From the NCBI GenBank assembly GCA_964437185.1, contig CAYTFU010000005.1:2528-66527 (forward strand): a stretch of 64,000 bases of DNA, read 5' to 3'. This document shows, piece after piece, positions 5,964 through 58,039 of this stretch (the first letter of the stretch is position 1; each line of letters opens with the position of its first letter). Under the pieces are notes generated by a model. The model was not told where the DNA came from. It worked only from the letters and a program-made list of their open reading frames with translations, and made no database searches. Position numbers and translations under genes: made by a program. Source of the stretch: an uncultured Candidatus Saccharibacteria bacterium. GTDB taxonomy: Bacteria; Patescibacteriota; Minisyncoccia; Phycocordibacterales; UBA2100.

Positions 5964-6779
5964 TTACCCTTTGAAGCCTTGGCGTAAGAGGGCGAGGCCA
6001 CCCCAGAGTCCGCCTTCGTCTTTGAGTGTCGAGTGAACGATCTCAGGTACCGAGGAAAATTTCTTCATAATGCGCTTCACGTGCGTCGCCACGCTCTCGA
6101 CGGGAATTCCTATTTCGTTGAACATAGAACCTCCGAGCACTACGCGGTCGGGCGACCAGTGGAGAATGCTGTTGTGCACACCGACCGCAGTTATTTTGGC
6201 GAGTTCCTCCCACACAGGATCATCTTTTGCGACTTCTTTTGGCGGCTTGCCAAATCTTTTTGAGATCACGGTACCCGAAATCAAATCTTCAAGCGTTTGC
6301 ACGCCATCTGCATCAAGGTATTGCCCTCCCATTTCTGCGCGACCGCGGTCAATCGCCCCGCCGATGATTCGGACGCCGTTTACACCCGTCGAGACTGTCA
6401 TATAGAAAACGACCGGAGCGCCCATGCCCGCACCATACACGGCCTCGCCAAGTCCCACCTGCGCCGTATCGTTTTCAAGAAAGACCCGCGTCGATAGCGC
6501 TTTTTCGATATCACCGGCAAGTTCGTGGCCTACCCATTGCGGAAGGTGTCGCGCCTCGCCAATGGTGCGTTTGTTGTCGGAAAGTGGGCCGGGGACGCCG
6601 ATTGCGATAGCCTCAATCGCACGATTACCGGCCGTCTGCCGCACCGCGTCGCAAAAGCGCGTAATGCCTTCGCGGTAATCTTGCGACGTATCAAATTTGC
6701 TCGGCGCATCGTACTGTTCGAGACTCGCACAACCTGCGATGCGCGTCTTGCTGCCCCCTATGTCGGCGACGATATACAT
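5964..6779 (-). CDS. ROK family sugar kinase (glucokinase-like)
   Basis: IGGSKTRIA N-terminus, ENDTAQVGLGE ROK signature. Confidence 0.8.
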   Translation of the reverse strand: MYIVADIGGSKTRIAGCASLEQYDAPSKFDTSQDYREGITRFCDAVRQTAGNRAIEAIAIGVPGPLSDNKRTIGEARHLPQWVGHELAGDIEKALSTRVFLENDTAQVGLGEAVYGAGMGAPVVFYMTVSTGVNGVRIIGGAIDRGRAEMGGQYLDADGVQTLEDLISGTVISKRFGKPPKEVAKDDPVWEELAKITAVGVHNSILHWSPDRVVLGGSMFNEIGIPVESVATHVKRIMKKFSSVPEIVHSTLKDEGGLWGGLALLRQGFKG

Positions 6780-6782
6780 GAC

Positions 6783-7763
6783 TCACTGCGCAATGCGCTT
6801 CTTAAATTCCGCAACCAACGGCGTCTCAGGATTCGGAACGCCGTAATCATTTGCGAGCGTGAAAGACACCCAATCGGCGAGAATTGCAGAATTGAGCGCT
6901 TTTTCAAATCCCGTTTTCCCCGCAAGCGCAATTTTCTCCACCGGAATCCCGCGCTCACCGAGAATTTCCGCCGCCACCTTCATCCGTTCAACAACGCGCG
7001 GGTGGTCACTAAAATCCTGCAAGAAAAGCGCGTGCATATTGCCCGAAATGGAGCGCGTGGAATCCGCGACATCAAAGCCCGAAAGCTCATTGTGGCAGAG
7101 CTCGGGGAAGACGTTGCAAAATGCGGGAATCTTCGATGTCTCGTTGAACTTTATTTTCCAAATGTAGGAGATCGGCACGTTCGCCGCCGATGAATAAATG
7201 AGGGGTACTTTGCCGCGAAGCGCTGCCGCGAGGCGCTCCCCCTCCGCCTTTCCGACCGTCGGATCGACGCGCTTGCCGGACGCGCGAATCGAATCTTCGA
7301 GCATAGGATTACTCATGAGGCGCGCCATAGCGATCATGGAGTAGCCGACCGCCATGCGCGGCTGAAGGCCCGTCTGCGGAATAAGGATGAGCGGCGCGCG
7401 ATGTTCGCGAGCAAATTCCGCGAGCTTCCCTCCCGTCGTCGCGGCAACGACCGGCAATCTCCGCTCAAGCGCAGTGCGCGCCGCATCGAGCGTTTCCTCC
7501 GTCGTCCCTGAATAAGAACTCAAAATCACGAGCGTATCCCGCGCCTGATCGGGCGCCACATCGGGAAGACTGTAGTCTCGATGAATCTCAATATTTGAAA
7601 CCGCTCCAAAACGCTTGATGAGCCACGCACCCAAGTGCGACCCACCCATTCCTGCAACAATATAATGTTTAAATGGCCGGAGCGTTTCTCCCCTCTCGAC
7701 CTCCGGTACCCAATCAAACTGCGCGCTGAATTTTGCAAGCGTATCTCCAATCATGACCGGCAT
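6783..7763 (-). CDS. bifunctional phosphoglucose/phosphomannose isomerase (SIS domain, archaeal type)
   Basis: GMGGSHLGA and SYSGTTEET SIS motifs, about 325 aa. Confidence 0.75.
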   Translation of the reverse strand: MPVMIGDTLAKFSAQFDWVPEVERGETLRPFKHYIVAGMGGSHLGAWLIKRFGAVSNIEIHRDYSLPDVAPDQARDTLVILSSYSGTTEETLDAARTALERRLPVVAATTGGKLAEFAREHRAPLILIPQTGLQPRMAVGYSMIAMARLMSNPMLEDSIRASGKRVDPTVGKAEGERLAAALRGKVPLIYSSAANVPISYIWKIKFNETSKIPAFCNVFPELCHNELSGFDVADSTRSISGNMHALFLQDFSDHPRVVERMKVAAEILGERGIPVEKIALAGKTGFEKALNSAILADWVSFTLANDYGVPNPETPLVAEFKKRIAQ

Positions 7764-7862
7764 TGTAACATCTCTCCGCCGCATCGATGAATGCGCTATT
7801 GTATCGATGCGGCATAAGGGGCCGTAGTCCCAAATAACTATCTTGTTATTTGTGAACGGACC

Positions 7863-9848
7863 CTAAGGCGTAGGGTTGCAGTTGGCGCTAATACCCAACT
7901 CCTCAACCCGATCTAAATACTTAACGACCGCGGCCACATATGAGGCATGCGCCCATGTGAGCGGCGCCGCGCACACCTGCTCGCCAGTATTTGGGTTGAG
8001 CTGCTCGGAAAGCACGCCAGAAGGTTGTGCGTGCCGGACAACCCAGCTAAATATTTCGCGCACACGATCAAGATCGGATTCTGTTCGCGCATTCGCGATG
8101 AGGTACTCTGCATAAAAGAGCGTTGTGAGTACCCACGGATTGCCCGTCGATGCACCCGGCACACGATAATAGTCGTCGTTTTCAAAACGCGCGATGCCGC
8201 CGATCGACACGCCGTGACTCAAAACCTCAACGCTTTTTTCAAACGCACGGGCAAGTTTTGGGTCGCCGGGCGGGAGCAGGCCGAAGGCGAAGACTCCGTA
8301 AACGCTCGAAATGTCGATAGTTTTGTCGTACACGAGCGATCCGTCTTTCCAATTGACGAGCTTCACAAACGTGCCGAGTTGATCATCCCAAAGATATTTT
8401 AGGACAGCATCCCGTATTTCTGAGGCAGCGTGGCGATATCGAGTCTCGTGCGACTCTTTACCTAATATTTTTGACATCTCGGCTGCGGCGATAAGCGCGC
8501 CATACACCGTCGCGGCTGTAAAGGTGGAACATCCGCGCAGTCGCTCCCACAAATCGTACGACGGACGAGGCAGCTTCGTCTGCGGATCGCGATAGTCGAC
8601 AAGAAAATCCGCCGGACGTTCGACCAGAAGGTTGTAGTTGGATTCTAGAAATTCGAGGTTGCGGCTGTGCTTGTAGTGTTCCAAGAGCGCGTAGACGACG
8701 AGTGCCGTTTCATCTTCTTGGATCGGCAATTGCGGATGACCGTCGCGAATCCAGGGGTGCCACGACGAACCGAGCGATTTGTCCGGCAAATACTTGTGCA
8801 TGAGGTACCCCTCTTTTGTTATGACGTCTTTGCAAAATTCGAAAAAGCGTTTTGCGACGGCGCCCTCCCCGGCCATGTCGAGCGACATCGCCACGTACGC
8901 GCCGTCGCGCGGCCACACATAACTATACGTATCGAGCCCATACTGCATCATGTCTGAATCGGTGGACGCGATGATGCCACCGTCTTTGTCGACGTGCGCG
9001 CGGATGTACATGAGCGAGCGGCGGAAAAGCGCTACGTGCTCTTTTGAGAGTCCGTAAAATTTCCAATCGTACGCATGCACCCACGCACGCCAAAACGCGG
9101 TCGTGGTGCGAAGCAAATGCTCCGGCATCTTTTTTACGACCACCTGATTGAGCTCATGCGCCTCAGGGATTGACTGCGCTGCGACCATCCAGTAATGACA
9201 CGTGCGCGATTGCCCGCCTGCGTAGCGAGCATAGAGACCGATGATGGAATCCGCCGGGCCGTGTTCTATCGGATTTTTGGAGAGCACGCCATCATCCCCA
9301 TCGCGATACGTCCCTTCGAGACCAGCGAAATTTACGCGCCCCGTCGCATAATCTTCAAACGGCACGCCGTCGAGGAGTGCGCGTATGAGAAACACCCGAT
9401 GCCCCTTGTAGTGGATCAGTGAGTGCGACCCGGGGTCGAAATATGCCGTATCGCTGCCGTGCGATTTGTAAATCTCAAACTCATGCCCGAAATACAGTTT
9501 GATATCCCTCGATTCCTCCGAAGTATTGGTGACAACGACACGGCGTACAAATACGGGCCGCTCGTTGTATACGGTGTCGGTAAGCGCGAGATCGACGCCG
9601 AGTTTTCTATTTCGCGCAATGACCGAGCTCACAAGCGCTTCCTCCTCGCAAGAAATATTGATCTCCCAATCGGCATCTTGCGACAGCCAACTAATTTTTC
9701 CGTCGACCCACACACCGAGACGATGAAGGTAGTGTCCTCGCACGTGATCCTCGAGTCCGACATGCGGATAGTAAATGTCTCGCACCTCGGCATGCTTATC
9801 GAGCGCGATGCACAGCTCGCCGTTTGATAAGACAATTGAGCGCGACAT
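7863..9848 (-). CDS. glycoside hydrolase family 15 (glucoamylase / glucodextranase-like)
   Basis: 661 aa with GH15 N-terminal beta-sandwich plus (alpha/alpha)6 catalytic-region blocks (WPRDGAY, LWEE-like, TWAHASYV). Confidence 0.85.
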   Translation of the reverse strand: MSRSIVLSNGELCIALDKHAEVRDIYYPHVGLEDHVRGHYLHRLGVWVDGKISWLSQDADWEINISCEEEALVSSVIARNRKLGVDLALTDTVYNERPVFVRRVVVTNTSEESRDIKLYFGHEFEIYKSHGSDTAYFDPGSHSLIHYKGHRVFLIRALLDGVPFEDYATGRVNFAGLEGTYRDGDDGVLSKNPIEHGPADSIIGLYARYAGGQSRTCHYWMVAAQSIPEAHELNQVVVKKMPEHLLRTTTAFWRAWVHAYDWKFYGLSKEHVALFRRSLMYIRAHVDKDGGIIASTDSDMMQYGLDTYSYVWPRDGAYVAMSLDMAGEGAVAKRFFEFCKDVITKEGYLMHKYLPDKSLGSSWHPWIRDGHPQLPIQEDETALVVYALLEHYKHSRNLEFLESNYNLLVERPADFLVDYRDPQTKLPRPSYDLWERLRGCSTFTAATVYGALIAAAEMSKILGKESHETRYRHAASEIRDAVLKYLWDDQLGTFVKLVNWKDGSLVYDKTIDISSVYGVFAFGLLPPGDPKLARAFEKSVEVLSHGVSIGGIARFENDDYYRVPGASTGNPWVLTTLFYAEYLIANARTESDLDRVREIFSWVVRHAQPSGVLSEQLNPNTGEQVCAAPLTWAHASYVAAVVKYLDRVEELGISANCNPTP

Positions 9849-9849
9849 A

Positions 9850-11046
9850 TCACCCTGCCGGCTTCGCCACGCGAAGGCGGAGGTCGGAAAGCGCGTTCAT
9901 GTACGCGATGTACGCATCGTAGGGCGATTCATACGGAGAAAAATACGCATGCACGTCGCCATCGGCAAACCACTTCGTACACATGTAGTAGAAGTGATCG
10001 GAGGTCTGAAGCTTGCGCCAGTCATCGAGCAATTTGTGATCGTTGGCGCGCAAAACGTCGTTTTCGAGCGCGTACACATTTTCGATTGCCGCGCGCTGCA
10101 TCGGATTGCCTACCCACGCCGTCAAATCGCGATCGGTGTCTGCCCACGTAAGAATGTGCGGCACATCCACCTCATCGCGCGGATCGTACGAAGCGATGAC
10201 CTCTGATGGGGTTTTGAAATCGATGCCAGGATTATACGAAAGTTGTCGAGGCAGATTTTCAAGAAAGTGAAAAATCCCCGTGTCTTCCCACTGATGCTCG
10301 CCAAACGTTTCGTAATCCATGAAGAGGTTGACCGTATCGCCATCGGCCTCACCCAGCCACGCACCAAACTTTTCGGTCGTAAGCGGCCACTCGGCCCAAT
10401 CGCGCGAAGAAAAACGGAACGCGACGTCGTCGGACAACCTATAATTTTTGAGGAGGAGCCGCGTGTTCTCTGCACCACTCGGCTTGTATACATAATTCGG
10501 ACTTCTCCACCCAAGTACCGGATCCCATCCCTCCGCGATGACACCCGCGTATCCGCTGCGATCCGCCCACTGCCCCAAATCATTTCTGTATGAGAGCTCG
10601 GTGTTGCGAAACACGCGCGGGCGAACACCGAAAAGTCGGCGGATAATATCACGGTGCTTGGTGACCTGCTGTTCAAACTCAAGAGGAGAGTAAAAAAACG
10701 CGAGACTGTGGTAATAGGTCTCGCCCAACACCTCCGCCCTCCCGGTGTCTACCACTTTTTTGAATAGCTCGATAACCTCGGGAGTGTGACGCTCCATCTG
10801 TTCAAGCGCGATACCCGAAAAGGAGAAACTCACCTTAAACTCCGGATGGCGATTCAATAGATCGAGTATGAGCCGTGTCGCCGGAATGTACGATTTTCGG
10901 GCAACCTTTTCCAAAACCTTCCGATTATTGAGATCGCTTTCGCCGCGATCATTGAAATACTCGGCATCGTTGCCGACGTCAAAAATGCGGTACCGCTTTA
11001 CGCGATACGGTTGGTGCACTTGAAAATAAAAACAAACTGACTTCAT
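9850..11046 (-). CDS. glycoside hydrolase family 57 (alpha-amylase / 4-alpha-glucanotransferase-like)
   Basis: FYFQVHQPYR GH57 N-terminal signature, 398 aa. Confidence 0.85.
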   Translation of the reverse strand: MKSVCFYFQVHQPYRVKRYRIFDVGNDAEYFNDRGESDLNNRKVLEKVARKSYIPATRLILDLLNRHPEFKVSFSFSGIALEQMERHTPEVIELFKKVVDTGRAEVLGETYYHSLAFFYSPLEFEQQVTKHRDIIRRLFGVRPRVFRNTELSYRNDLGQWADRSGYAGVIAEGWDPVLGWRSPNYVYKPSGAENTRLLLKNYRLSDDVAFRFSSRDWAEWPLTTEKFGAWLGEADGDTVNLFMDYETFGEHQWEDTGIFHFLENLPRQLSYNPGIDFKTPSEVIASYDPRDEVDVPHILTWADTDRDLTAWVGNPMQRAAIENVYALENDVLRANDHKLLDDWRKLQTSDHFYYMCTKWFADGDVHAYFSPYESPYDAYIAYMNALSDLRLRVAKPAG

Positions 11047-11112
11047 GATTTTTCAGTTTTTGACTCCGCCCAATGTTGTGCGAACATAGACATTCTACCA
11101 CCTCCAATCATC

Positions 11113-12333
11113 TCATTGGGTGAGGTCTTGCACAATGGTGTTGACTTTGAGAGCCGCGTCGGTCCAGGTGAGCCGATCTGCCTCGCGCGATGCGTTTTCG
11201 GAGAGCGTTTGGCGCAACCCAGGGTGGCCGACAACCGAAAGGATTTGATTTGCCATTTCTTCGACATCCCAGAAATCGACTTTAAGCGCGTGCTTTACGA
11301 CTTCAGAAACTCCAGACTGCTTCGACATCAACACTGGCGTGCCGAGCTTCATGGCTTCCAGCGCCGTGAGACCAAAGGGCTCCGATACCGAAGGCATCAC
11401 GAAAAGATCCGCGACAGAATATACTTCGTGCCTCTCCTCGCCTTCAAGAAAACCGGTAAAAAAGACCTGCCCTGCAATGCCGAGCTCTGCCGCAAGGTTC
11501 ATCATTTGATTTTCCATATCTCCCGAACCGGAAAGAATGAACAGCACCTTGGGGTCGTGTTCGGCCACACGCTTGGCGACTCGCAAGAAATAATCCGGCC
11601 CTTTCTGCAGCGTCACACGGCCGATGAAAAGCACCATTTTGTACCCGCGCGCTTTGAGCGCCCGCAAGCGCGGCAGCGCGCCACTTCCTTTTGCGGGGGT
11701 GGTGGATTCATCGATTCCGTTGTAAATGACGCGCACTTTTTCTTCCGGTATGCCGTACTCGCGCACAATAATTCCTTTCGTTAATTCTGATACAGCAATC
11801 ACGCGATCTGCATACTCCATTCCTTCCTTTTCGATTCGGTAGACGTCGGGATTTACGCCCGCAGAGCCTCCGCATCTGTCAAACTCGGTTGCGTGCACAT
11901 GCACGATGAGTGGCTTGCCGGAAACGCGCTTGGCCTCCATTCCAGCTCCAAAAGATAGCCAGTCGTGCGCGTGGATCACATCAAACTGCTCACGCCGCGC
12001 GATCCCCGCACCAAGGCTCGCGTACCGCAGCACCTCGCTCATCAAATCCTGGCCGTAAATTGAAATTACCGATCGATCACCTCGTACCACATAGCTCTTA
12101 GAGGTCACGTAGGGCCGCAAAATGGAGTTTATCGCCACCGATTCGACGCCCTCGATATCGGCAAAAATCATCCGCGCCCACTGGGTCTGGATATCGAGCT
12201 TCTTTGGCATGACGAAAAGCACATCGAGTCCGATGTTCGAGAGTGCGCGCGTGAGACCGAGGCATGCGACACCGAGCCCACCGCTATGGTAGGGCGGAAA
12301 CTCCCATCCGAACATGAGGACACGCTTTTTCAT
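11113..12333 (-). CDS. GT4-family glycosyltransferase (alpha-glucan / glycogen-synthase-like)
   Basis: 406 aa, GT-B fold blocks, C-terminal E-x7-E-like GT4 region (FVMPSVSEPFGLTALEAM). Confidence 0.75.
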   Translation of the reverse strand: MKKRVLMFGWEFPPYHSGGLGVACLGLTRALSNIGLDVLFVMPKKLDIQTQWARMIFADIEGVESVAINSILRPYVTSKSYVVRGDRSVISIYGQDLMSEVLRYASLGAGIARREQFDVIHAHDWLSFGAGMEAKRVSGKPLIVHVHATEFDRCGGSAGVNPDVYRIEKEGMEYADRVIAVSELTKGIIVREYGIPEEKVRVIYNGIDESTTPAKGSGALPRLRALKARGYKMVLFIGRVTLQKGPDYFLRVAKRVAEHDPKVLFILSGSGDMENQMMNLAAELGIAGQVFFTGFLEGEERHEVYSVADLFVMPSVSEPFGLTALEAMKLGTPVLMSKQSGVSEVVKHALKVDFWDVEEMANQILSVVGHPGLRQTLSENASREADRLTWTDAALKVNTIVQDLTQ

Positions 12334-12390
12334 TGTTAAAAATTGTTGATGACTGTAGAGATTTTACCATGCGCATGCTACGCTCCACAC

Positions 12391-13152
12391 ATGATTTGTC
12401 CTCGTGTGGTGATATTCGATCTCGACGACACACTCGCAGAGAGTTTTCAGCCGCCGACCGCGCAGATGGTAGAGAAATTGCATGCATTACTCGATCGAGT
12501 GCCCATCGGACTCATGACGGCGGCCGGCCTGCCCCGCATTCGCGAGCAATTTATCGATCATTTGAAAGATTCCGAGCACATATCGCGCTTCTACATTTTC
12601 CCCAATAGCACTGCAGAATGTTATGTATTCAAGGACGGCGAGTGGGGTGTCGCCTACAGCCTCGGCCTTACGCAAGAGGACCGCGAATTGATCAAAAGAG
12701 CCATTACCGATGCCCTCGCTGAGACGGGCATTCTGGGTGAGAGCCCGAAACATGAGCCGCTCATCATCGATCGCGATGCGCAAATCGCTTTTGCCGCCCT
12801 TGGACTTGGCGCTTCCTACGAAGATAAAGCATCCTGGGATCCCGATAGAAAGAAGCGGCTGGCGCTTATTGATGTGCTTCTCAAGAAGATTCCGCAATTT
12901 GAAATTTTGATGGGCGGCATGACGACTATCGACATCACACACAAAGGGATCAACAAAGCATACGGCGTGAAGTGGCTTTCGGAAAATCTCGGCATCCCCA
13001 CGGGCGAAATGATCTTCGTCGGCGACGCACTCTACCCGGGCGGCAACGACAACGTCGTGATCCCGACCGGAATCCAAACCCGCGCCGTCACCAACCCGAG
13101 CGAAACTCTCCTCGTCATCGACGAACTCCTCACCATCTGCCCGAGCACCTAG
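12391..13152 (+). CDS. HAD-IIB family sugar-phosphate phosphatase
   Basis: VVIFDLDDTL motif I, later GGMTTIDITHKGINKA and FVGDALYPGGNDN motifs; start placed at MICPRV. Confidence 0.65.
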   Translation: MICPRVVIFDLDDTLAESFQPPTAQMVEKLHALLDRVPIGLMTAAGLPRIREQFIDHLKDSEHISRFYIFPNSTAECYVFKDGEWGVAYSLGLTQEDRELIKRAITDALAETGILGESPKHEPLIIDRDAQIAFAALGLGASYEDKASWDPDRKKRLALIDVLLKKIPQFEILMGGMTTIDITHKGINKAYGVKWLSENLGIPTGEMIFVGDALYPGGNDNVVIPTGIQTRAVTNPSETLLVIDELLTICPST

Positions 13153-15280: not shown

Positions 15281-16213
15281 TTAACTGCCTTCACCCGCCG
15301 GATGCTCCCTTTCATACTCCTCGACCATCCTGAAGAATGCTGACGTAGGCCCACGGGGCATAAGCACCTTTGCTGGGAACGCCTCAGTCAAGTCCTCCTC
15401 TGTTTTCGCCCTCGCAACCCGCTCTGAAAATACTTTCCACATTTCCTGGTTCACTGAGCCGTCGGCTTTCACAAACTGCATCCAGAGCGCAGGCGCGGCT
15501 AAAAATTTTTTGGTGTCACCAATCGCCTCGACGGCCTCTAAGGACTCTTGATACTCGATGGGAAACAATTCGCGGTAACGGGGCAAATTATATAGCCAGG
15601 ATTGTCCGTTCACCATCTTGTTTTCGTCTGGATATAACGTGCGAATTTCTTTAAACATCTCGTACAATTCGCGCTTTCTTCTTTCCAGTTTGTCGAGTGA
15701 CAAGGGACCTCCTCCGACATTATCTCGATTGTCAAAGTGTACGTTGATTTCTCCGGGGCGAGAACTATCCATCGGTTGAACATCGTAATGAAAACAACCG
15801 AATCGGTGCTCGGTTCGCATATTACGCCCTTCCTTCAAGCTGTTATATTTTTCGTACGCAATTTGGGCCACGTCCTGAAGTTTATTAGCAGAGACAAGGG
15901 GTGTCGCTTGCTCTATAAAATCTTCCCAAATTTTCCAGAGCGCATCGTATGTAGCCTTATCTCGACCGGGCAACTCATGCCCAAGCACATTAAAAAACGG
16001 CGTGTGAGACGACAAAGCTTCTCTAAACGGTATTTCCTTCAATCTTGAAGCTGCGTCGGCGTACTCCACCATTACCTGAAAAACTTCCCTACTGTATCGA
16101 ACTTCCTCGTTAAGATCATCAGAAAGCTGAGACGGTGCTTGGGGTCCCTCAAGCGAACCATTCTTACGATCGCCCGCCGTTTTCCCCACTGCTCTTATGG
16201 GCGTCTCGCGCAT
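15281..16213 (-). CDS. hypothetical protein
   Basis: long ORF 15281..16300 trimmed to avoid overlap with 16248..16670; no recognised motif. Confidence 0.4.
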   Translation of the reverse strand: MRETPIRAVGKTAGDRKNGSLEGPQAPSQLSDDLNEEVRYSREVFQVMVEYADAASRLKEIPFREALSSHTPFFNVLGHELPGRDKATYDALWKIWEDFIEQATPLVSANKLQDVAQIAYEKYNSLKEGRNMRTEHRFGCFHYDVQPMDSSRPGEINVHFDNRDNVGGGPLSLDKLERRKRELYEMFKEIRTLYPDENKMVNGQSWLYNLPRYRELFPIEYQESLEAVEAIGDTKKFLAAPALWMQFVKADGSVNQEMWKVFSERVARAKTEEDLTEAFPAKVLMPRGPTSAFFRMVEEYEREHPAGEGS

Positions 16214-16247
16214 ATCAATAGAAACGATTTCTATCCTACGTAGCGAC

Positions 16248-16670
16248 CTAGGCCCGAGGACAGATGCTGTTCCACGGTCCAAATTCGGTATTTCCCCCAA
16301 CGAGCGTCCGCATGATTGTGTCCACCACTAGCCAACCCATGAGGATAATGACAAGACCAATCGCAACATTGGTAAAGACCTTTTTTGCCTTTGTCGTCTT
16401 ATTCATATTGCCCATAGCGGTCATGTAGACCCAGCCCGCCCAGGCGAACAGAATGGCCGAGAGAAATACCGCAATATAGATAGCTGTGTTGAGAATGTTT
16501 TGCGCAAGCGTCGCAAGATGACACACAGTACACTCCGTGCCACTGAGAGAAGTACCGTCGCAGGGCACCACCTTGTTCAAGACGTTCTGCTGCGCCGTGG
16601 CGAGAGATGGAAGTGCAGTAGAAATGAGGAGCATCAACAGCAGGATCGTCGCTGCTCTCGTCCGAATCAT
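16248..16670 (-). CDS. VirB2/TrbC-like pilin-type small membrane protein
   Basis: signal peptide (ALPSLATAQQ), Cys-containing hydrophilic segment, two hydrophobic helices; same architecture as the 24862..26810 array. Confidence 0.55.
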   Translation of the reverse strand: MIRTRAATILLLMLLISTALPSLATAQQNVLNKVVPCDGTSLSGTECTVCHLATLAQNILNTAIYIAVFLSAILFAWAGWVYMTAMGNMNKTTKAKKVFTNVAIGLVIILMGWLVVDTIMRTLVGGNTEFGPWNSICPRA

Positions 16671-23579: not shown

Positions 23580-23585
23580 CCTCTG

Positions 23586-23657
23586 AGGCCTGGGCGAGAC
23601 TCGAACTCGCGCATAAGAGTTTTGCAGACTCCCGTGTTACCCCTTCACCACCAGGCC
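23586..23657 (-). tRNA. tRNA-Cys(GCA)
   Basis: manual cloverleaf: acceptor GGCCTGG/CCAGGCC, anticodon stem GGAGT/ACTCT, loop CTGCAAA, T-loop TTCGAGT. Confidence 0.85.
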
Positions 23658-23707
23658 AACAATAAACTGACGCGTGTACTGTAACATACAAAAATTATGG
23701 GATACAG

Positions 23708-24253
23708 ATGTGCACAGCTTACATCGTGCGTATACCCTTCTGTTACAATCTATTAATGCGAAAGCGAAGCTGGTCTCTGCAACAGCTAAAGAAGGCCGCA
23801 GAACAGTCGCATAGTATTCGTCAGGTTCTTATCAATTTGAAGCTTGTGCCGGCGGGAGGAAACTACGTACAAATAAAGCGAGAGCTAGAGATTCAAGAAA
23901 TCGATACGCTGCATTTTCGGGGAAAAACCTGGAATCGCGGACTCAAAACACCTAGACCACCTCTCATAGCTACTGCTGACATACTAGTGAAAAAAAGCGG
24001 CTACCAGAGTTTTAAATTAAAGAAGCGTCTCTTTGCCGAGGGTTTGAAAAAAGCCCAATGCGAAATCTGCGGTTGGGCGGAACGATCAATCGACGGTCGT
24101 CTTCCCCTTGAACTCGATCACGTAAACGGCGATCGCTACGACAATCGAATCGAAAACTTACGAATACTTTGTCCCAACTGCCATAGCCTTCAACCCACAC
24201 ATCGTGGTAGAAATAAGGGACGTCGGGGTGGCGTAATTGGTAGCCGCATTTGA
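23708..24253 (+). CDS. HNH endonuclease
   Basis: CEICGW...LELDHVNGDRYDNRIENLRILCPNCH HNH/zinc motif; alternative start ATG 23756; lower GC than surroundings; 3' end overlaps tRNA-Leu by about 30 nt. Confidence 0.7.
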   Translation: MCTAYIVRIPFCYNLLMRKRSWSLQQLKKAAEQSHSIRQVLINLKLVPAGGNYVQIKRELEIQEIDTLHFRGKTWNRGLKTPRPPLIATADILVKKSGYQSFKLKKRLFAEGLKKAQCEICGWAERSIDGRLPLELDHVNGDRYDNRIENLRILCPNCHSLQPTHRGRNKGRRGGVIGSRI

Positions 24254-24305
24254 CTTAAGATCAAATGCTCGAAAGAGCGTGTGGGTTCGAGTCCCACCCC
24301 CGGCA
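24222..24305 (+). tRNA. tRNA-Leu(TAA)
   Basis: manual cloverleaf: acceptor GTCGGGG/CCCCGGC (one GU), anticodon stem TTTGA/TCAAA, loop CTTAAGA, long variable arm, T-loop TTCGAGT; 84 nt. Confidence 0.85.
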
Positions 24306-24307
24306 CA

Positions 24308-24485
24308 GACTGAGCGGAGCGAGTGCTGTGCTGGGGAGCACAGCGCCTGCGCGCTGTGCGTGTGGGACTCGAAAGGCGCAGGCATGTCGCACGAGTACGT
24401 GCGACGCCGAGCCGGGGTCGCGGAAATTCAATCGTGTCGACGATTGAATTATTCGTGACCGAGTTTACCCCCCACCCCCGGCACA
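24308..24485. repeat. hairpin-rich GC-rich insert ending in a 15-bp duplicate (cccacccccggcaca, 24471..24485) of the tRNA-Leu(TAA) 3' end
   Basis: perfect hairpins gtcgcacg/cgtgcgac and aattcaatcg/cgattgaatt; duplicate of 24293..24307. Confidence 0.6.
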
Positions 24486-24598
24486 TTTTTGTGTTTCAAA
24501 ACTTGAGAATTTGTGTACAATCTCACTACCGCCTATATATTCATATAGACGGGTCAGTCGGAGAACATGAAAGCTCGCTTTCATGTTTCCCCTCCTTA

Positions 24599-24671
24599 CC
24601 GCCTATAGCTCAGCTGGTAGAGCAACTGCCTCTTAAGCAGTGGGTCCCAGGTTCGATCCCTGGTGGGCGGA
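24599..24671 (+). tRNA. tRNA-Lys(CTT)
   Basis: D-arm TAGCTCAGCTGGTAGAGC, anticodon loop CTCTTAA, T-loop TTCGATC, acceptor CCGCCTA/TGGGCGG; the 5' boundary (C1) is uncertain by 1-2 nt. Confidence 0.75.
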
Positions 24672-24702
24672 AAAATGTTTTGAGTGTTAGGATACCGGGG
24701 AA

Positions 24703-24784
24703 GGGCAGATGGCGAAATTGGTAGACGCACCAGCCTTAGGAGCTGGCCCCGCAAGGGATGGGAGTTCGAGTCTCCCTCTGCCCA
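24703..24784 (+). tRNA. tRNA-Leu(TAG)
   Basis: acceptor GGGCAGA/TCTGCCC, anticodon stem CCAGC/GCTGG, loop CTTAGGA, long variable arm, T-loop TTCGAGT; 82 nt. Confidence 0.85.
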
Positions 24785-24861
24785 CGAGTGAAGCGAGTGG
24801 AGACAAGTCCCTGCGAAGCAGAGGGGCTCTGCCCACAGGCAAAAGCGCGAAGAATTCGAAT

Positions 24862-25146
24862 CTATCGAACGATGTTTTTTTCAACGCTCTTGTTACCCGA
24901 GCCAAGATTAAACGTGCTGTCGATGATTCGAATAATGCCCCACGAGGAAACCATGATCGTCATGCCGATGACGCCCCAGAGCATATGCTCCTTACCTTTT
25001 TCATCCACCTTGCCCGTGCGCATTCCCCACATCATCTCTACCAGTCCGTACATGAAGACGAGCAGACCAATACCGAACAGGAGCGCAAGCGTGGGATTGA
25101 TGATGAGTGTCGTGATGCGACCCATTATTTCTCCAATTGTGTTCAT
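24862..25146 (-). CDS. pilin-like small membrane protein (VirB2/TrbC-like), paralog 1
   Basis: 94 aa, two hydrophobic helices separated by a charged loop (RTGKVDEKGKEH). Confidence 0.5.
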   Translation of the reverse strand: MNTIGEIMGRITTLIINPTLALLFGIGLLVFMYGLVEMMWGMRTGKVDEKGKEHMLWGVIGMTIMVSSWGIIRIIDSTFNLGSGNKSVEKNIVR

Positions 25147-25206
25147 ACTAAATTCACCTCGTAAAGAGTTACCGATCCCAAGAGCGAACGATCACCGATG
25201 TAAAAA

Positions 25207-25581
25207 CTAAAAGTTGGTCAACTGAATACCCTGCGGCACCTGTGCTGCCCCACCGCCAACAGAGAAGGTCGTCTGAAGCAAGCGTACGAGACCCCAAACC
25301 GAAACCATAACGAAGATTGTGACGACGCCGTAAAACATCACCTTGAGACCCTCTGATTTTCCCTCTGCGCCACCCTGAAAGAGATATTTTACTAAGCCCC
25401 AGAAGAAAACCACTACCGCGAGCGTTACGGCGACCCCGATGAGCCCATTTAGAAATCTGCTGATGAGCTGCAACACGCCAAACAGTCCTCCAACGGTCTG
25501 GGTGGGCGTTTGGGCCATGGTAATGAGCGGCAGTGCAGCCACAGAAAGCGCGGGGATCAGAGTGTTTATAAATTTACGCAT
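25207..25581 (-). CDS. pilin-like small membrane protein (VirB2/TrbC-like), paralog 2
   Basis: signal peptide ending ITMAQTPTQT, two TM helices with charged loop GGAEGKSEGLK. Confidence 0.55.
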   Translation of the reverse strand: MRKFINTLIPALSVAALPLITMAQTPTQTVGGLFGVLQLISRFLNGLIGVAVTLAVVVFFWGLVKYLFQGGAEGKSEGLKVMFYGVVTIFVMVSVWGLVRLLQTTFSVGGGAAQVPQGIQLTNF

Positions 25582-25689
25582 AGATTATTTAGCAGTTACT
25601 GCTCCTAATAGGTAGCTCAATCGTATCTTTGGGGGGCGAAAACACAATGCTTTTTCCCTATGAAATGTGGATAACCCCTAGGTCAGTTG

Positions 25690-26118
25690 CTATGCATGCT
25701 CCTCCGGTGAGGGGGGTTTGGCGGACGCTCCCGATTGAGCAACAACCACCACCCCTACCCCGATCGCAATAAGTACGGCGAGAACAGAGAGCACATACCG
25801 AGCCGATTCCGCGTTGTTCTGAATAAACTGGACGATGGTGAGAAGCACCACAAGCACAAAAAGTATGACCACTGCCCACTCCATTACCTTGATTGCGACT
25901 GTGCGATACGAAGGCCAACTCCCAAGGCGGCACGCCCACTGAATTAATCCAACCGCATACGTAACGATTGCGGTCGTCAGCATAAGTCCGACGAAGATAT
26001 TAAAGATGCCTACCGCTTTAGAGAGAATCTCCGCGTGCGCTGGAAATGGCACGGCGAGCGCAAGTAAGAGAAGACCGGCGCAATGTGTCGACACATTTTT
26101 CAGATACGATACCAACAT
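25690..26118 (-). CDS. pilin-like membrane protein, longer paralog (extra C-terminal helix)
   Basis: signal peptide (AVPFPAHAEI), then three hydrophobic helices; start placed at MLVSYLK to avoid overlap. Confidence 0.45.
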   Translation of the reverse strand: MLVSYLKNVSTHCAGLLLLALAVPFPAHAEILSKAVGIFNIFVGLMLTTAIVTYAVGLIQWACRLGSWPSYRTVAIKVMEWAVVILFVLVVLLTIVQFIQNNAESARYVLSVLAVLIAIGVGVVVVAQSGASAKPPSPEEHA

Positions 26119-26119
26119 A

Positions 26120-26446
26120 CTAGAGAGGTGTTGCGGCTCCGCCACCCGGGAAAAATGTGGCTTGAATCAGACCCACTATCCCCCAGAGAGAAACCATGAC
26201 GAACAAAATGATAATTCCCCAAAAGAAAAGATTTTTCATATTCTCGCGTCCGCTCTCAGACGACTTAGACATGTTGAGGACAAAAAGAAACATGTAGGTG
26301 GTAAGTGCCGCAAGGGTCAGCATCTCGATAGCCACCTTGATGATGTTGAGTAGAAGCTGCACGAGCTGCGCGTACGTTTGCGGGGCAGCGAGCGCCACGC
26401 CGGGGACGAGCGCGAGCAGAGCGAGAAGTGCGGCGGGCTTCCGCAT
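26120..26446 (-). CDS. pilin-like small membrane protein (VirB2/TrbC-like), paralog 4
   Basis: signal peptide ending VALAAPQTYAQ, two TM helices, charged loop SKSSESGRENMK. Confidence 0.55.
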   Translation of the reverse strand: MRKPAALLALLALVPGVALAAPQTYAQLVQLLLNIIKVAIEMLTLAALTTYMFLFVLNMSKSSESGRENMKNLFFWGIIILFVMVSLWGIVGLIQATFFPGGGAATPL

Positions 26447-26447
26447 A

Positions 26448-26810
26448 CTAAGTTCCGAGCACGGCGCTTACGGTGCCCCCGATCATTTGCGCAAGTACCC
26501 ACGCCCCGAGGATAAGGAGTGCTCCGAGGATTACGTAGAGAAAATTCTTTTTTGCAGTTTCAAGTTGGCCAGGACGACCTCGCGCGAGCACAAACATAAA
26601 TCCCGAAATTACCACAAAGAGAGATATGATCGGCAGAGCGATAATAACAACGATCTTCAACACACCAGCAATAAACCCCGGAATAGTACTGAATTGTGCG
26701 CTCAGCGGATTTTTGATCACGAAGTCCTGTGCTGCTATGACCATGGCGGCCGGGAAAAAAAGCAACATGCCTCCCAATATCCCTAGGTATTTTGCTAATT
26801 GCCGTTTCAT
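26448..26810 (-). CDS. pilin-like small membrane protein (VirB2/TrbC-like), paralog 5
   Basis: signal peptide ending AMVIAAQDF, two TM helices, charged loop ARGRPGQLETAKK. Confidence 0.55.
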   Translation of the reverse strand: MKRQLAKYLGILGGMLLFFPAAMVIAAQDFVIKNPLSAQFSTIPGFIAGVLKIVVIIALPIISLFVVISGFMFVLARGRPGQLETAKKNFLYVILGALLILGAWVLAQMIGGTVSAVLGT

Positions 26811-28105
26811 ATGGCAAGAATTTGTGTGAGCTCAAGGTCGGCGCGCTGGACCGCTTCATTAATGAGGACAGCCCCACTCGTCGTGTTTTCAATCATAGCT
26901 CGAAATATCTCGGCTGTCGCCTCGGGGTCGGGATCTGTCCACGAGCGCGCGATGATTGTTTGTTTATTGAAAATATCTGCATTTCCGGTGCCCGGCGTGC
27001 TGAGGAGCTCGCGCCGCGCGCTCGTCATGCCAAGCCCTTGCGCAAGCGGCCCCGCAAAATCAGCGCCTGCGAGGAGCGTTGCGGCGGTCACTGCCCCTTG
27101 AAGATTGGTGCTCGTACGCGAAACAGCGATACCGTACACGCGCGCCGTATTTAACGAGGTAGAGTTCGAGCGTATCTGCGGAAGAGGAGCGACGCCATAA
27201 TTTAAATTCGCATTCGTGCGCCGTATGGCCGATTCTTCACTCGCATACCCTATGTACAGCGCCACGTCGCCGCCAGCAAACGCACGCTGCGATTCCAAGA
27301 GCGAACGATTCCACGTGTAAATTTCCTTAGACGGATTTGCAAACTCGGTGTAAAAGCGGAGTGCGGACACTGCGGCCTGACTTTCCGACCCGCTCTGCGG
27401 AGCAAGCGCCGCCCTGAGCGCACGCTGCTCGTCGAAAGCGGTAATGCGCCCCCCTGCCTGAAGAATCAAAGTCGCGAGAATTTCTTTTGCATTTGTGACA
27501 TTGCGATATTCCCCCATCGCAATAGCAGATCGTTTGATCGTACCAGTCTCGTCCTTGACGGTAATCTTCTGCGCCATACCTATGAGCTCGTCCCAAAAAC
27601 TCGGCGGCTTTGCGTATCCCGCGGTAGCGAGCATGTCTTTGTTCCAGTACAAAACGAGTGGATCTACGAGGATCGGTATCCCCGCAATGCCCTTGTCGTT
27701 CGTAAAGGGAGATACTACATCCACAAACGTACTCTCGAATTTAGACAGAGGGTGCGTCTCTGGCGGAAGCACGTAGATTTTTCCGAGGTTACGGAAAACC
27801 TGATTTTCTCGAAGAATAAACAGATCTGGGCCTTCGCCGTTTGCGAGCGCATTGGTGAGGGCTTTTTCATATGTTGCTGGATCTTTTTTTTCATACACGA
27901 CTCCCGAAAGCGGACCCCCATTCTCCAAGCTTTTGGTAAGCACTTCGCCAAATGCCGCGTCATCGATAGTGCCCCATATTCGCACGGTACCGAGCGACCC
28001 TCCCTCATCTTTCCCCACGAACATTGCAAAAACCATCACCCCCGCGACTGCAAATGCCCCAAAGACCGCGAGGAGCACGACCCGAAACATTGAGGGCGAT
28101 TTCAT
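26807..28105 (-). CDS. extracellular solute-binding protein-like (family 1 SBP fold), N-terminal membrane anchor
   Basis: TM anchor then SBP-like blocks (GEGPDLFIL, IPILVDPLVLYWNKDML, PPSFWDEL); no permease or ATPase adjacent. Confidence 0.55.
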   Translation of the reverse strand: MKSPSMFRVVLLAVFGAFAVAGVMVFAMFVGKDEGGSLGTVRIWGTIDDAAFGEVLTKSLENGGPLSGVVYEKKDPATYEKALTNALANGEGPDLFILRENQVFRNLGKIYVLPPETHPLSKFESTFVDVVSPFTNDKGIAGIPILVDPLVLYWNKDMLATAGYAKPPSFWDELIGMAQKITVKDETGTIKRSAIAMGEYRNVTNAKEILATLILQAGGRITAFDEQRALRAALAPQSGSESQAAVSALRFYTEFANPSKEIYTWNRSLLESQRAFAGGDVALYIGYASEESAIRRTNANLNYGVAPLPQIRSNSTSLNTARVYGIAVSRTSTNLQGAVTAATLLAGADFAGPLAQGLGMTSARRELLSTPGTGNADIFNKQTIIARSWTDPDPEATAEIFRAMIENTTSGAVLINEAVQRADLELTQILAI

Positions 28106-28106
28106 A

Positions 28107-28679
28107 TTATTTTTTTGCGGGTGAGAAAACGATCCCGTAGTGGTGCGCCCCTGCCGCAAAATCACGAACAAGTGTAAAGCCCGAATCGCGCGCGAGGGTC
28201 TCCGCATTCTCCCTCGTCACCACATCCTCCCCCTGCGGGCCGAGGCCTCCGAAGGAATCGCTCCAATCAATAACGATGAGCGAGCCCTCGGGCCGAAGGA
28301 TGCGCGAAGCCTCTTCAAAAAGCGCTTTTTTATTTTGCACCTGAAAAAGAAGGTTTGATATGAGTACGGTGTCGACGCTTCCATCGGCGAGCTTGGACGC
28401 CCCGGGACGCTCGAGATCCGCCCAAATAACTTCGACGTTTTTAAAACCTCTCCGGTTCGCTTCATTTTTTAGACGGCGCAAAAGATCACGCTGAATGTCG
28501 ATTGCGAAAACATGGCCTTTGTGGTTCAACTCCTCAGCAATATGAAGGACATAGATGCCGCTCCCCGAGCCGAAATCGACGACGGTCATTCCCGGCTGTA
28601 CGCCCAGCGCTTCCACGTTGCGTTTCGGATGCGCAAAACCCGCCGTTGGTAACGGAGTGCCAGTCAACATTGTGCACAT
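28107..28679 (-). CDS. class I SAM-dependent methyltransferase
   Basis: VVDFGSGSGIY motif I, acidic motif II (FAIDIQRD). Confidence 0.8.
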   Translation of the reverse strand: MCTMLTGTPLPTAGFAHPKRNVEALGVQPGMTVVDFGSGSGIYVLHIAEELNHKGHVFAIDIQRDLLRRLKNEANRRGFKNVEVIWADLERPGASKLADGSVDTVLISNLLFQVQNKKALFEEASRILRPEGSLIVIDWSDSFGGLGPQGEDVVTRENAETLARDSGFTLVRDFAAGAHHYGIVFSPAKK

Positions 28680-35242: not shown

Positions 35243-35839
35243 TTAATCGAGAGGCAGTCTGAAATGCCGACGCAGCGGCGCATCAAATTCAATAGCATCT
35301 GCGATGATATAGATAAGCTCTCTACCGATTTTGAGATCGAGCTTTAATAGCGCGACTACCTCCTCACAGTCATACGGAAGAACCCACACGCTATCCTGAA
35401 GCCGAAAAAAACCCATTCTTGAGACGAGTAGTCGAACGCGTTCCCGCAACCCCTTTCTTTTTTCCTCAATATCGAAAATCACGATGCGCCATTTGCGGTC
35501 CCATCGACGAGGCTTTTTGATCTGAGTTTTACCGAGAGAGGCGCGTCGAGCCTCCTGCTCGCCTTTTTGCGTAAGTCGGGGAACATTTCTGCCGTTGAGA
35601 TTTCTGAATTCGATCAGTCCCTTGCGCTTCATTCGAGAGAGGGTCTCCCGCAATCGGCGACGCGGATCTCGCTTACTCATCCAATCGGGATCGCAGTGCT
35701 TCAAAAGCTGGAGCGCATTTGGCGCAGCCATTGCAACAACTGCGATACCCGTCGCCGAGAAGGCGGCAAGTAACATATTTTCTATGTTCACCCGCCTCGT
35801 CCTTTTCTTGGATTCTGATTCCATCCGCCCCACAAGCAC
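35243..35839 (-). CDS. winged-helix-like N-terminal domain fused to a Cas2/VapD-like C-terminal domain (PaaX-like architecture), paralog A
   Basis: 198 aa, GTG start; N-terminal segment NMLLAAFSATGIAVVAMAAPNALQLLKH; C-terminal WRIVIFDIEEKRKGLRERVRLLVSRMGFFRLQDSVWVLPYDCEEV matches the Cas2 core pattern (beta1 hydrophobic-x-x-FD, basic helix, Q-x-SV-F/W); paralog at 57452..58039. Confidence 0.55.
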   Translation of the reverse strand: MLVGRMESESKKRTRRVNIENMLLAAFSATGIAVVAMAAPNALQLLKHCDPDWMSKRDPRRRLRETLSRMKRKGLIEFRNLNGRNVPRLTQKGEQEARRASLGKTQIKKPRRWDRKWRIVIFDIEEKRKGLRERVRLLVSRMGFFRLQDSVWVLPYDCEEVVALLKLDLKIGRELIYIIADAIEFDAPLRRHFRLPLD

Positions 35840-50715: not shown

Positions 50716-51705
50716 TTAGTGCCGAAAATGGCGGATGCCGGTGAAAACCATGGCAATGCCTGCGGCGTTCGCAGCGCTAATTGAATCCTGATCTTTAAGA
50801 GAACCGCCCGGCTGGATAATCGCCGTAATCCCCTCCTGCGCAGCCACGTCCACGCAATCAGGAAACGGCATAAAAGCATCGGAGGCCATTACGGCGCCTT
50901 CGAGAGAAATTTTCTCGTCGGCCGCCTTAATCGCGGCAAGCCGCGCGGAGTATATGCGGCTCATCTGCCCCGCGCCTATTCCTACTGTCGCGCCATCTTT
51001 TGCATACACGATCGCGTTGGACTTTACGTGTTTGCATACGGTGAATGCAAAGAGTAGGTCAGCGAGTTCTTTTTCTGTTGGCACGCGCGTGGTGACTGTT
51101 TTTACCTCACCGTCAAACACCTTCGCATCGGCGGTCTGTACGAGTACGCCACCCGCGATTGATCGCATGGTCGTACGAGGTTCCGCAGGATCGGGCATTG
51201 ATCCCGTGAGGAGCACGCGCACATTCGGCTTCACCGAAAGAATCGTGAGCGCTTCTTCCTCGGCATCGGGAGCGATGATTACTTCGAGAAATATTTTGAC
51301 AAGCTCGCTCGCAAGATCGGCAGTGATTTTCGAATTGAGCGCGACGATACCGCCAAAGGCAGAGACGGTGTCGCACGCAAACGCTCGCATGTAGGCATCG
51401 TGAATCGTGTCCGCAACCGCCACTCCACACGGGTTCATGTGCTTCACGATCACAGCGGCTGGCTCCTCAAACTCGGCGACGCATTCAAAGGCCGCGTCGG
51501 CGTCCTGCAAATTGTTGAAGCTGAGTTCCTTCCCCTGCACCATGCGCGCAGACGCGACGCCCGGTCGGACGTCGCCTGGATTTCTGTACAAAGCCGCTGC
51601 TTGGTGAGGATTCTCACCGTAGCGAAGCGCGCTTATTTTCTCGAGCCTCAGCGAGAGAGGCGATGGAAGCTGTTCTTGCTCGTGATCCGCTTCGTTCATT
51701 GCCAC
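50716..51705 (-). CDS. purH: AICAR transformylase domain protein (PurH C-terminal domain only, no IMP-cyclohydrolase/MGS domain)
   Basis: [10 protein letters not shown] near the N-terminus corresponds to about residue 220 of bifunctional PurH; GTG start; 329 aa. Confidence 0.8.
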
Positions 51706-57451: not shown

Positions 57452-58039
57452 CTATTCCGCACGCGGAGGTAACTTAAAAAGACTCCGGAGCCACCGATCC
57501 CCTTCCACCTCATCCGTGACGATATACAGCACTTCCCTTCCCACAGAAAAGTCGGTCTTAATCATTGAAATGATATCTTCACAATCGTGCGGGAAAATCC
57601 AAACGCTATCTTGCAATTTGATGAATCCAATTTTGATAAGCAGGTGACGTAATCGATCACGTGCCAAACGGCGACGCTCGGTAATATCAAACATGACGAT
57701 TCGCCACTTACCGTCCCACTTTTTTGGTGACTTGTATTTTGCCGATCCGAGCTCAAGACGAAGTAGCAATTGCTCACCGCGTTTAGTGAGCTCTACGCCC
57801 CTTTTGGGGCCAGAACCTACCACACGAATGAGGCCCCTACTTTCCAACCTTCGGCGAGTTGCGGACACACGTGAGGCATAGCGTGATCGGGGACCATCAA
57901 TGTACTTCAATAGCCGCAGTGCATTTGGAGCCACCGCCGCCATAGCCAGAAATCCCACGACTTTAATCGATTCAAGAACTGCGCGTTGAATATTTTGCTT
58001 CCGTGCTCTCTTTTGAACTCTTGCCTCTACCTTACCCAT
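57452..58039 (-). CDS. winged-helix-like N-terminal domain fused to a Cas2/VapD-like C-terminal domain, paralog B
   Basis: 195 aa; N-terminal segment GFLAMAAVAPNALRLLKY; C-terminal WRIVMFDITERRRLARDRLRHLLIKIGFIKLQDSVWIFPHDCEDI; same architecture as 35243..35839. Confidence 0.55.
   Translation of the reverse strand: MGKVEARVQKRARKQNIQRAVLESIKVVGFLAMAAVAPNALRLLKYIDGPRSRYASRVSATRRRLESRGLIRVVGSGPKRGVELTKRGEQLLLRLELGSAKYKSPKKWDGKWRIVMFDITERRRLARDRLRHLLIKIGFIKLQDSVWIFPHDCEDIISMIKTDFSVGREVLYIVTDEVEGDRWLRSLFKLPPRAE

Follow-up and report, generated by a model that had tools for sequence, protein, structure and literature searches.

A fixed array of predicted VirB2/TrbC-type pilin paralogs adjoining an anchored solute-binding protein gene in Kaiserbacteria-like patescibacteria

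Tandem arrays of small, diverged VirB2-like pilin genes are already known as a kind from the Patescibacteria. The survey of Quinonero-Coronel et al. (2025) lists 441 such arrays, of 2 to 11 genes each, from 383 Patescibacteria assemblies, found mainly in Microgenomatia and Saccharimonadia; identity within an array is about 25%, the diversity is read there as a possible adaptation to different hosts or host strains, and about 40% of the pilin genes lie away from virB4 (PMC12102498). In Southlakia epibionticum ML1, an essential six-gene PF18895 array, SEML1_0014-0019, sits inside a type IV secretion system (T4SS) cluster, and a solitary pilin, SEML1_0024, is non-essential (PMC10633639). A review from 2025 treats a possible patescibacterial pilus as a candidate conduit for signals or uptake (PMC12857230). 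Here we describe an array of five pilin-like genes, designated p5 to p1 in their order of reading, that directly follows the gene for an anchored solute-binding protein (SBP) in contig CAYTFU010000005.1 of GenBank assembly GCA_964437185.1. All coordinates refer to the window, that is, the whole 64-kb stretch analyzed (contig positions 2,528 to 66,527).

The survey counts as a pilin any protein with an i-Evalue below 0.001 and coverage above 50%, and as an array at least two pilin-HMM-positive genes (HMM, hidden Markov model), in tandem or with one non-pilin gene between them, in a patescibacterial genome (PMC12102498). By that standard p5, p2 and p1 are pilins, with p4 and p3 lying between, and the locus is an array of the surveyed kind. 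A preliminary description of the window had called such paralog arrays typical of reduced episymbiotic bacteria, a view that the survey bears out for Patescibacteria (PMC12102498).

The array belongs to a run of seven closely packed minus-strand genes, from 28679 to 24862. A soluble class I S-adenosylmethionine-dependent methyltransferase (28107..28679; Pfam Methyltransf_31/25/11) comes first, followed by the anchored family-1 SBP (26807..28105, 432 aa). The five small genes then follow in the order p5 (26448..26810, 120 aa), p4 (26120..26446, 108 aa), p3 (25690..26118, 142 aa from its ATG or 151 aa from an upstream GTG), p2 (25207..25581, 124 aa) and p1 (24862..25146, 94 aa). A sixth member, p6 (16248..16670, minus strand, 140 aa), is a solitary p5-like pilin. 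The five small open reading frames (ORFs) of 94-142 aa, p6 and the SBP had all been noted beforehand, and each is present where it had been placed. A 1-nt spacer separates the methyltransferase from the SBP (TAA-T-ATG), SBP and p5 share 4 nt at the junction of stop and start (ATATGA), and 1-nt spacers recur at the p5/p4 and p4/p3 junctions (TAG-T-ATG at both). Gaps of 108 nt and 60 nt precede p2 and p1, of which p2 has its own AGGAG ribosome-binding site and p1 its own Shine-Dalgarno-like sequence. The array genes and the SBP gene are packed for coupled translation and co-expression. A scan for promoters and terminators across 24.4-31.5 kb gave counts not above those in shuffled sequence. The stop-T-start string (within 26110-28115 and 25140-25215), TAGTATG at p5/p4, at p4/p3 and just before p1, and TAATATG between methyltransferase and SBP, may be a reinitiation signal typical of the genome.

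Orthologs of the SBP provided loci from 80 species-representative genomes, together with three longer contexts, for comparison. Copy number was counted in the 62 loci with at least 2.3 kb of sequence downstream of the SBP. In every one of these 62 loci, three to six pilin-like ORFs follow the SBP directly, with exactly five in 38. The SBP stop overlaps the first pilin start, in an ATGA-type junction, in 23 loci, and the two genes lie within 36 nt of each other in 50 of the 62. With each ORF classed by its best match to the proteins of the window, the exact order p5-p4-p3-p2-p1 is found in 32 related species genomes, and near variants of it in most others; a p5-type gene comes first in 55 of the 62 loci, a p1-type gene comes last in 57, and p4 orthologs occur in 57. 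Matches to the positional ortholog score 60-130 bits, as against 10-50 bits for the next paralog, so that each array position is occupied by a separate conserved ortholog. Median identity to the window protein over 33 complete arrays is 58% for p5, 41% for p4, 48% for p3, 52% for p2 and 44% for p1, and the SBP in the same genomes has a median identity of 53%. Ortholog identities of 41-58% are about those of the SBP, which indicates purifying selection like that on the SBP. Parts predicted to be exposed are conserved as well, for example the p2 tail FKVTSTDPVIPKGIQINT and the NPL motif of p5. None of the 62 loci breaks the association of SBP and array, even where SBP identity has fallen to 37%. 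Judged from these comparisons, the set is old, fixed in composition and specific as to position, and purifying selection on it is of the ordinary kind. Origin from a mobile element can be ruled out, since gyrA on one side and rbfA-infB on the other place the locus in a conserved core of the chromosome.

Such constancy bears directly on how the diversity of the paralogs should be read. They are strongly diverged from one another, as had been noted from the start, with pairwise identities among p1-p6 of 17-34%, and the preliminary description took this diversity to point to surface or adhesion variation. In its general form, that explanation makes the five genes interchangeable, diversifying pilin variants that serve variation in surface, adhesion or host range, as has been proposed for the VirB2 paralogs of Bartonella and Anaplasma. 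The low identity between paralogs speaks for it, and variation is what the survey proposes for patescibacterial arrays generally (PMC12102498). Against it, positional orthologs are kept across at least 33 species at the 41-58% identity given above, much as the SBP is, gene order and copy number are stable, and p2 and p5 both have conserved extracellular tails. Comparison of array copy number between strains or metagenome bins had been proposed as a check, and five independent assemblies of the window's own population are identical, with 0 mismatches over 2.2-4.0 kb; across species, the range is the three to six genes already described. Several ENA assemblies contain the identical locus, the contigs reaching 250 kb (ERZ27247828:k141_178633), and the complete chromosome OZ253947.1 has the operon at 394-407 kb. 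No repeats or recombination cassettes were noticed. Variation among interchangeable copies is therefore, in our judgment, a most improbable account of this locus.

By its SBP orthologs and its synteny, the locus is assigned to a Kaiserbacteria-like patescibacterium. SBP orthologs at 50-61% identity come from genomes named Candidatus Kaiserbacteria or Parcubacteria. The records of many metagenome-assembled genomes (MAGs) in the comparison set, L009, L010, L013, L017, L027 and L028 among others, carry the title 'uncultured Candidatus Saccharibacteria bacterium' and show Kaiserbacteria synteny, with the SBP at 50-61% identity. The Saccharibacteria labels of MAGs such as L009 and L010 are probably wrong.

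The assignment of the small proteins to the VirB2/TrbC pilins, first proposed from their layout, is well supported by family models. In a Pfam scan, p5 (32.7 bits), p6 (28.5 bits) and p2 (27.5 bits) score above the gathering threshold of PF18895 (T4SS_pilin), which is 26.6 bits. The match of p5 to PF04956 (TrbC/VirB2) covers its full length at 20.2 bits, below the cut-off, and its orthologs do better: of 25 taken from related genomes, every one is hit by PF18895 (best E 1e-13) and 22 are hit by PF04956 (best E 6e-11). The remaining three array members fall below the Pfam cut-off, from which it follows that surveys relying on HMM thresholds undercount the members of such arrays. For p1, p3 and p4, the tie to the pilin superfamily runs solely through hhalign comparison to p2 (98.7-99.8% probability). 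With one profile per array position, built from the orthologs of that position, hhalign joined p4 to p2 at 99.8% (E 1e-29), p2 to p1 at 99.7%, p4 to p1 at 98.8%, p3 to p2 at 98.7% and p4 to p3 at 96.2%. The p2-p1 alignment pairs residues 38-117 of p2, i.e. its mature part, with residues 10-90 of p1. Profiles of p5 and p2 align at 85% (E 6e-6), with 90 columns in register. These pairings, taken with the PF18895 and PF04956 matches, make p1-p4 one clade and p5 and p6 the canonical TrbC-like members. On profile evidence, then, all six small proteins are shown to be homologous and to belong to the VirB2/TrbC-type pilin superfamily.

The position-specific ortholog HMMs pick out exactly the six ORFs p1-p6 from among 514 ORFs in the window. 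The p3 family comprises 92 cluster representatives of similar length (E <= 0.001, from 1.84 billion proteins). NCBIfam model NF045849, the 'Mbov_0395 family pilin-like conjugal transfer protein' of Mycoplasma integrative and conjugative elements, gives weak, near full-length matches to p2, p4, p5 and p6, at 17.9-24.9 bits under a cut-off of 40 bits; these hint that VirB2-like proteins occur also in other wall-less or monoderm conjugation systems. A VirB3/PrgI-type identity was considered for p1, which has two transmembrane (TM) segments and no signal peptide, and was ruled out by its 99.7% match to p2 and the lack of any VirB3 or PrgI match in Pfam.

Hydropathy shows in p2, p4, p5 and p6 a signal-peptide-like N-terminal segment and then two long hydrophobic helices around a loop. 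The layout described at first for all five array members, with a signal peptide ahead of a single helical hairpin, thus stands for p2, p4 and p5 and fails for the other two. In p1 there are two hydrophobic helices and no signal peptide, and 44 of 60 p1 orthologs likewise have two segments. In p3 a signal peptide and hairpin are followed by a third hydrophobic helix, most p3 orthologs having four hydrophobic segments. Hairpin loops run to 12-15 residues, not the 10-12 first reported, with net charges of 0 to +4; that of p5 is basic (ARGRPGQLETAKKN, net +3). Cleavage of the signal peptide is more plausibly placed after Ala, directly before Gln, than after AQ as had been proposed. An AlphaFold2 (AF2) model of p5, the most conserved array member, built with database proteins, has a pLDDT of 80.9 and helices at 2-27, 43-75 and 80-118, that is, a signal-peptide helix plus a helix-turn-helix hairpin. 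Alignment of p2 orthologs reveals invariant WG and MVSxWG motifs along with the conserved hydrophilic C-terminal tail, and in p5 the conserved NPL motif is N-terminal. The predicted hairpin and the charge of its loop fit the topology of VirB2 and TraA, in which the termini are outside and the loop is cytoplasmic.

The solitary pilin p6 stands beside tRNA-Tyr and clpB, about 8 kb from the array. It matches the p5 ortholog HMM at 43 bits (E 9e-13), has orthologs in Kaiserbacteria at 50-69% identity, and follows clpB also in the relative L089. The preliminary description was right to set it apart as a lone sixth member and gave it a pair of cysteines; there are four in all, and the mature N-terminal region is Cys-containing. 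Some Joint Genome Institute names make the protein a TRAP small subunit, DctQ, which can be ruled out, the DctQ match being well under its cut-off at 17.8 bits and the PF18895 match above. Array composition is altered in the most distant SBP relatives: in L088, the most distant of all, a p6-like gene heads the array (7275-9550), and L076, L081 and L084 each have two p5-like genes in the array. These shifts suggest that p6 once belonged to the array. Directly after p6 is an ORF for a soluble protein of 339 aa (15281-16300, minus strand), overlapping p6 by about 50 nt in its longest reading, with no Pfam or NCBIfam family.

The SBP had been described as an SBP-fold protein with a TM anchor, and both points hold. 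It scores 65.3 bits against Pfam SBP_bac_1 and 61.8 bits against SBP_bac_8, both domains above threshold, which places it in family 1 (CUT1). An N-terminal hydrophobic segment forms its TM anchor; there is no lipobox Cys. Among solved structures, the trehalose/maltose-binding protein 1eu8 comes closest to it (E 3.7e-9), and the NCBIfam model for MalE matches with E 8.9e-10. Many Trp, Tyr, Asp, Glu and Arg positions are invariant in the ortholog alignment. An AF2 model from 12 orthologs reached a pLDDT of 38.9 and was unusable. Part of the window (5964-13152) encodes a ROK kinase, phosphoglucose isomerase (PGI), GH15, GH57, a GT4/GT5 starch-synthase-like enzyme and a PMM/HAD phosphatase. These alpha-glucan and sugar genes fit a user of maltose- or trehalose-type carbohydrates, the class of ligand suggested for the SBP.

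Whether the SBP has anything to do with the pilins is the point on which the main rival explanation turns. It accepts the small proteins as T4SS pilins and regards the SBP and the methyltransferase as unrelated neighbors, the SBP serving a CUT1 importer whose permease and ATPase are encoded elsewhere. The rigid gene order of these genomes makes this plausible; we would place it on the unlikely side. The methyltransferase of the window has generic, sub-threshold matches to NCBIfam. In at least 62 of 75 related loci, a homolog of it on the same strand stops no more than 150 nt upstream of the SBP; gyrA, too, is a constant neighbor (69 of 75), and the locus is framed by gyrA-methyltransferase-SBP upstream and rbfA-infB downstream. 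Synteny of clearly unrelated genes is thus kept equally well, and since gene order is generally conserved, adjacency alone is no proof of a joint function of either the SBP or the methyltransferase with the pilins. The SBP moreover has the normal features of family 1, including the conservation of aromatic and acidic residues that is usual in sugar binders, and the array of S. epibionticum has no SBP.

On the other side of the question, CUT1 SBP genes normally adjoin their own two permease genes (MalF/MalG type), often together with an ATPase gene. No ABC permease or ATPase gene adjoins the SBP in the window or in any related locus, its neighbors being the methyltransferase and p5. The overlapping or nearly abutting SBP and p5 genes, and an association that survives to 37% SBP identity, likewise speak against an unrelated neighbor.

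The reading we favor, tentatively and with somewhat less than even confidence, is that the array encodes distinct, non-redundant subunits for a T4SS encoded elsewhere, co-expressed with the SBP as an anchored sugar receptor. Besides family membership, topology, fixed composition and order, gene packing and the lack of an adjacent permease or ATPase, it draws support from the report of VirB4 for 8 of 11 operon-carrying Kaiserbacteria MAGs (PMC12102498 Table S1) and from the essential ML1 array inside a T4SS cluster. A sugar role for the SBP is proposed because GH15, GH57 and GT4/5 enzymes are encoded in the window and because 1eu8 binds trehalose and maltose. The precursors would enter the membrane by way of Sec/YidC and signal peptidase, p1 inserting without cleavage. 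The canonical, possibly major, pilin would be p5 (and p6), and the p1-p4 clade would supply subunits of an accessory, priming or anchoring kind, comparable to the sets of minor pilins in type II secretion and in type IV pili. A machine of VirB4/VirB6/PrgI/TrsD type, encoded elsewhere, would then assemble a short pilus or a conduit that crosses the envelope in the direction of the host cell. Translated along with the array, the SBP would remain at the membrane and bind a sugar or glycan, for which the maltose/trehalose class is the likeliest; as the receptor of the system, it would either sense host-derived carbohydrate or capture it for uptake.

A number of observations weigh against this proposal. 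Among 67 major ORFs of the window scanned with Pfam, there is no family match to VirB4, VirB6, VirD4 or a relaxase, a result that covers recognizable homologs, about 17 of the 67 being without any family; the preliminary description had likewise reported no VirB4, VirD4 or relaxase in the 64 kb, and to that extent it was correct. In the flanks of about 6 kb from the 80 relatives, none of the ten largest non-syntenic ORFs (423-842 aa) is VirB4-like, the ten encoding a helicase, an ABC exporter, spermine synthase/M28 and similar proteins. Because no T4SS ATPase or channel gene was recognized in the window or among these ORFs, dependence on a T4SS is only inferred; pilus formation and the role of the SBP are inferred as well. 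In the survey's table, 3 of the 11 operon-carrying Kaiserbacteria MAGs have no VirB4 listed, all 11 being drafts and the count weak evidence either way (PMC12102498). The PF18895 scores of p1 (20.9 bits, E 3.8e-4) and p4 (12.7 bits) are below the cut-off, and p3 has no Pfam match at all. Searches of the PDB with profiles of the p5 and p2 orthologs found no pilin and returned only a designed ion channel (E 2-4), and Foldseek found no match to solved VirB2 or TraA; the fold is very simple, however, and we regard the lack of a match to solved pilins as uninformative rather than as counter-evidence. The constancy of gyrA beside the SBP, reflecting gene order that is rigid in general, also weakens the argument from linkage. 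To our knowledge, a pilus of this type has never been observed in any patescibacterium.

Detachment from the secretion machinery invites an account with no pilus and no T4SS, in which VirB2-derived hairpins and the SBP form a membrane complex of their own, for example an exapted sugar-sensing or uptake module. The operon is always detached from VirB4/VirB6 and always attached to the SBP, the 3 of 11 operon-carrying MAGs without reported VirB4 are in keeping with it, and both the extra TM helix of p3 and the missing signal peptide of p1 are unusual in pilins. Yet the operon has no ATPase or other energy-coupling gene, the p5 orthologs clearly match TrbC/VirB2, and the closest arrays in the literature form part of T4SS clusters, with which they are jointly essential. 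Distance from virB4 is in any case shared by the roughly 40% of patescibacterial pilin genes reported in the survey (PMC12102498). We consider such a complex unlikely.

There is a more specific form of the T4SS proposal, to which we give little credence, as a long shot: in the Kaiserbacteria lineage, the pilin set and the orphan SBP might together be an import device, a heteromeric VirB2-type conduit to the host cell with the membrane-anchored SBP at its base taking up carbohydrate from the host, of the maltose/trehalose or glycan class, and handing it on. If true, this would be the first molecular evidence of a patescibacterial T4SS in nutrient uptake rather than export. The system is essential in the single species in which this has been tested, and published speculation on its role ranges from effector export to uptake of host molecules. 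Pilin paralogs that are fixed and individually conserved within one large lineage argue for a heteromeric structure, and the coupling to an SBP gives a concrete point of entry into what the patescibacterial T4SS does.

Most of the 67 scanned ORFs of the window are housekeeping or metabolic. They include dCTP deaminase, ThyA, serine hydroxymethyltransferase (SHMT), PGI, ROK kinase, GH15, GH57 and GT4, as well as MiaA, ClpB, IF2, RbfA, GyrA, LepB, FtsA, FtsZ, lysine-pathway enzymes, PurH and PyrF. The spacer between the array and rbfA (23585-24785) holds tRNA-Cys, an HNH endonuclease ORF (23708-24253), tRNA-Leu(taa), tRNA-Lys and tRNA-Leu(tag), the end of the endonuclease ORF overlapping tRNA-Leu(taa). 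Relatives hold other genes there (spermine synthase/M28 peptidase etc.), which marks the spacer as a variable site in an otherwise rigid region. Two adjacent minus-strand ORFs (50716-51705 and 51743-52318) both match AICARFT_IMPCHas (PurH) from profile position 60, and their first 96 residues are identical at 95 of 96 positions; either the 5' part of the gene has been duplicated in tandem, almost exactly, or the assembly is at fault here. Two further minus-strand ORFs (35243-35839 and 57452-58039) encode paralogs of about 195 aa with a PaaX_M (Cas2-like) domain, identical at 80 of 187 positions. A Fic/DOC family protein is encoded near the window end (63309-63899, minus strand).

The SBP shares its Pfam families with the Thermococcus litoralis protein 1eu8 and with MalE, the similarity being significant yet remote (E 1e-9); it differs in that a TM anchor replaces the lipid anchor or free periplasmic form, and no MalF/MalG/MalK-type genes are adjacent. 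SBPs that serve T4SS-related signaling are known in PrgZ of Enterococcus pCF10 and ChvE of Agrobacterium. These lack permease genes of their own, are tied to type IV secretion or conjugation, and sense an external ligand, as the present SBP would on the reading favored here. PrgZ, however, is a family-5 peptide binder in a plasmid regulatory region, and ChvE acts by way of the VirA kinase. Translational coupling to pilin genes is found with neither of them, and the present locus has no kinase or regulator.

With TrbC, VirB2 and TraA (PF04956), the array shares a small precursor, a long signal peptide, two hydrophobic helices and a short basic loop. Those pilins are normally encoded by a single gene in a virB or trb operon that also encodes VirB4, VirB5 and VirB6. 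The present monoderm has six paralogs, which show no detectable likeness to solved pilins and have no recognizable VirB5 or VirB4 nearby. In the logic of its organization, the array resembles the operons for minor pilins and pseudopilins in type IV pili and type II secretion, such as GspH-I-J-K and FimU-PilVWXE, in which four to five diverged paralogs of the major subunit are kept together in a conserved order, every one with its own orthologs. Type IV pilins belong to another superfamily, with a single N-terminal helix and a prepilin peptidase, so the analogy is one of logic and not of homology.

The ML1 array has a similar make-up, with five to six diverged PF18895 genes for proteins of 100-185 aa (Wang et al. 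2023, PMC10633639). In both cases the TrbC/VirB2 match is limited to some members (SEML1_0018/0019 in ML1, p5 here), and a separate solitary pilin exists (SEML1_0024 and p6, respectively). The ML1 array differs in adjoining VirB6, PrgI and VirB4 homologs, with no SBP in or beside it, and essentiality has been measured in ML1 only. In neither the main text of the array survey nor the part of its supplement examined is a solute- or substrate-binding protein mentioned (PMC12102498), and a constant coupling to an SBP (and methyltransferase), detached from VirB4, was not found in the literature searched. Within that literature, this coupling, together with the fixed orthologous composition in more than 60 species of one lineage, appears to be new. 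Like the surveyed arrays, the present one occurs in the same phylum, matches PF18895 and PF04956, and consists of small, diverged genes in tandem with no relaxase nearby. It is set apart from them by the absence of a recognized VirB4 within about 6 kb in the relatives checked, by its Kaiserbacteria (Paceibacteria) lineage, by its fixed positional composition, and by being joined in every case to an SBP and a methyltransferase (PMC12102498).

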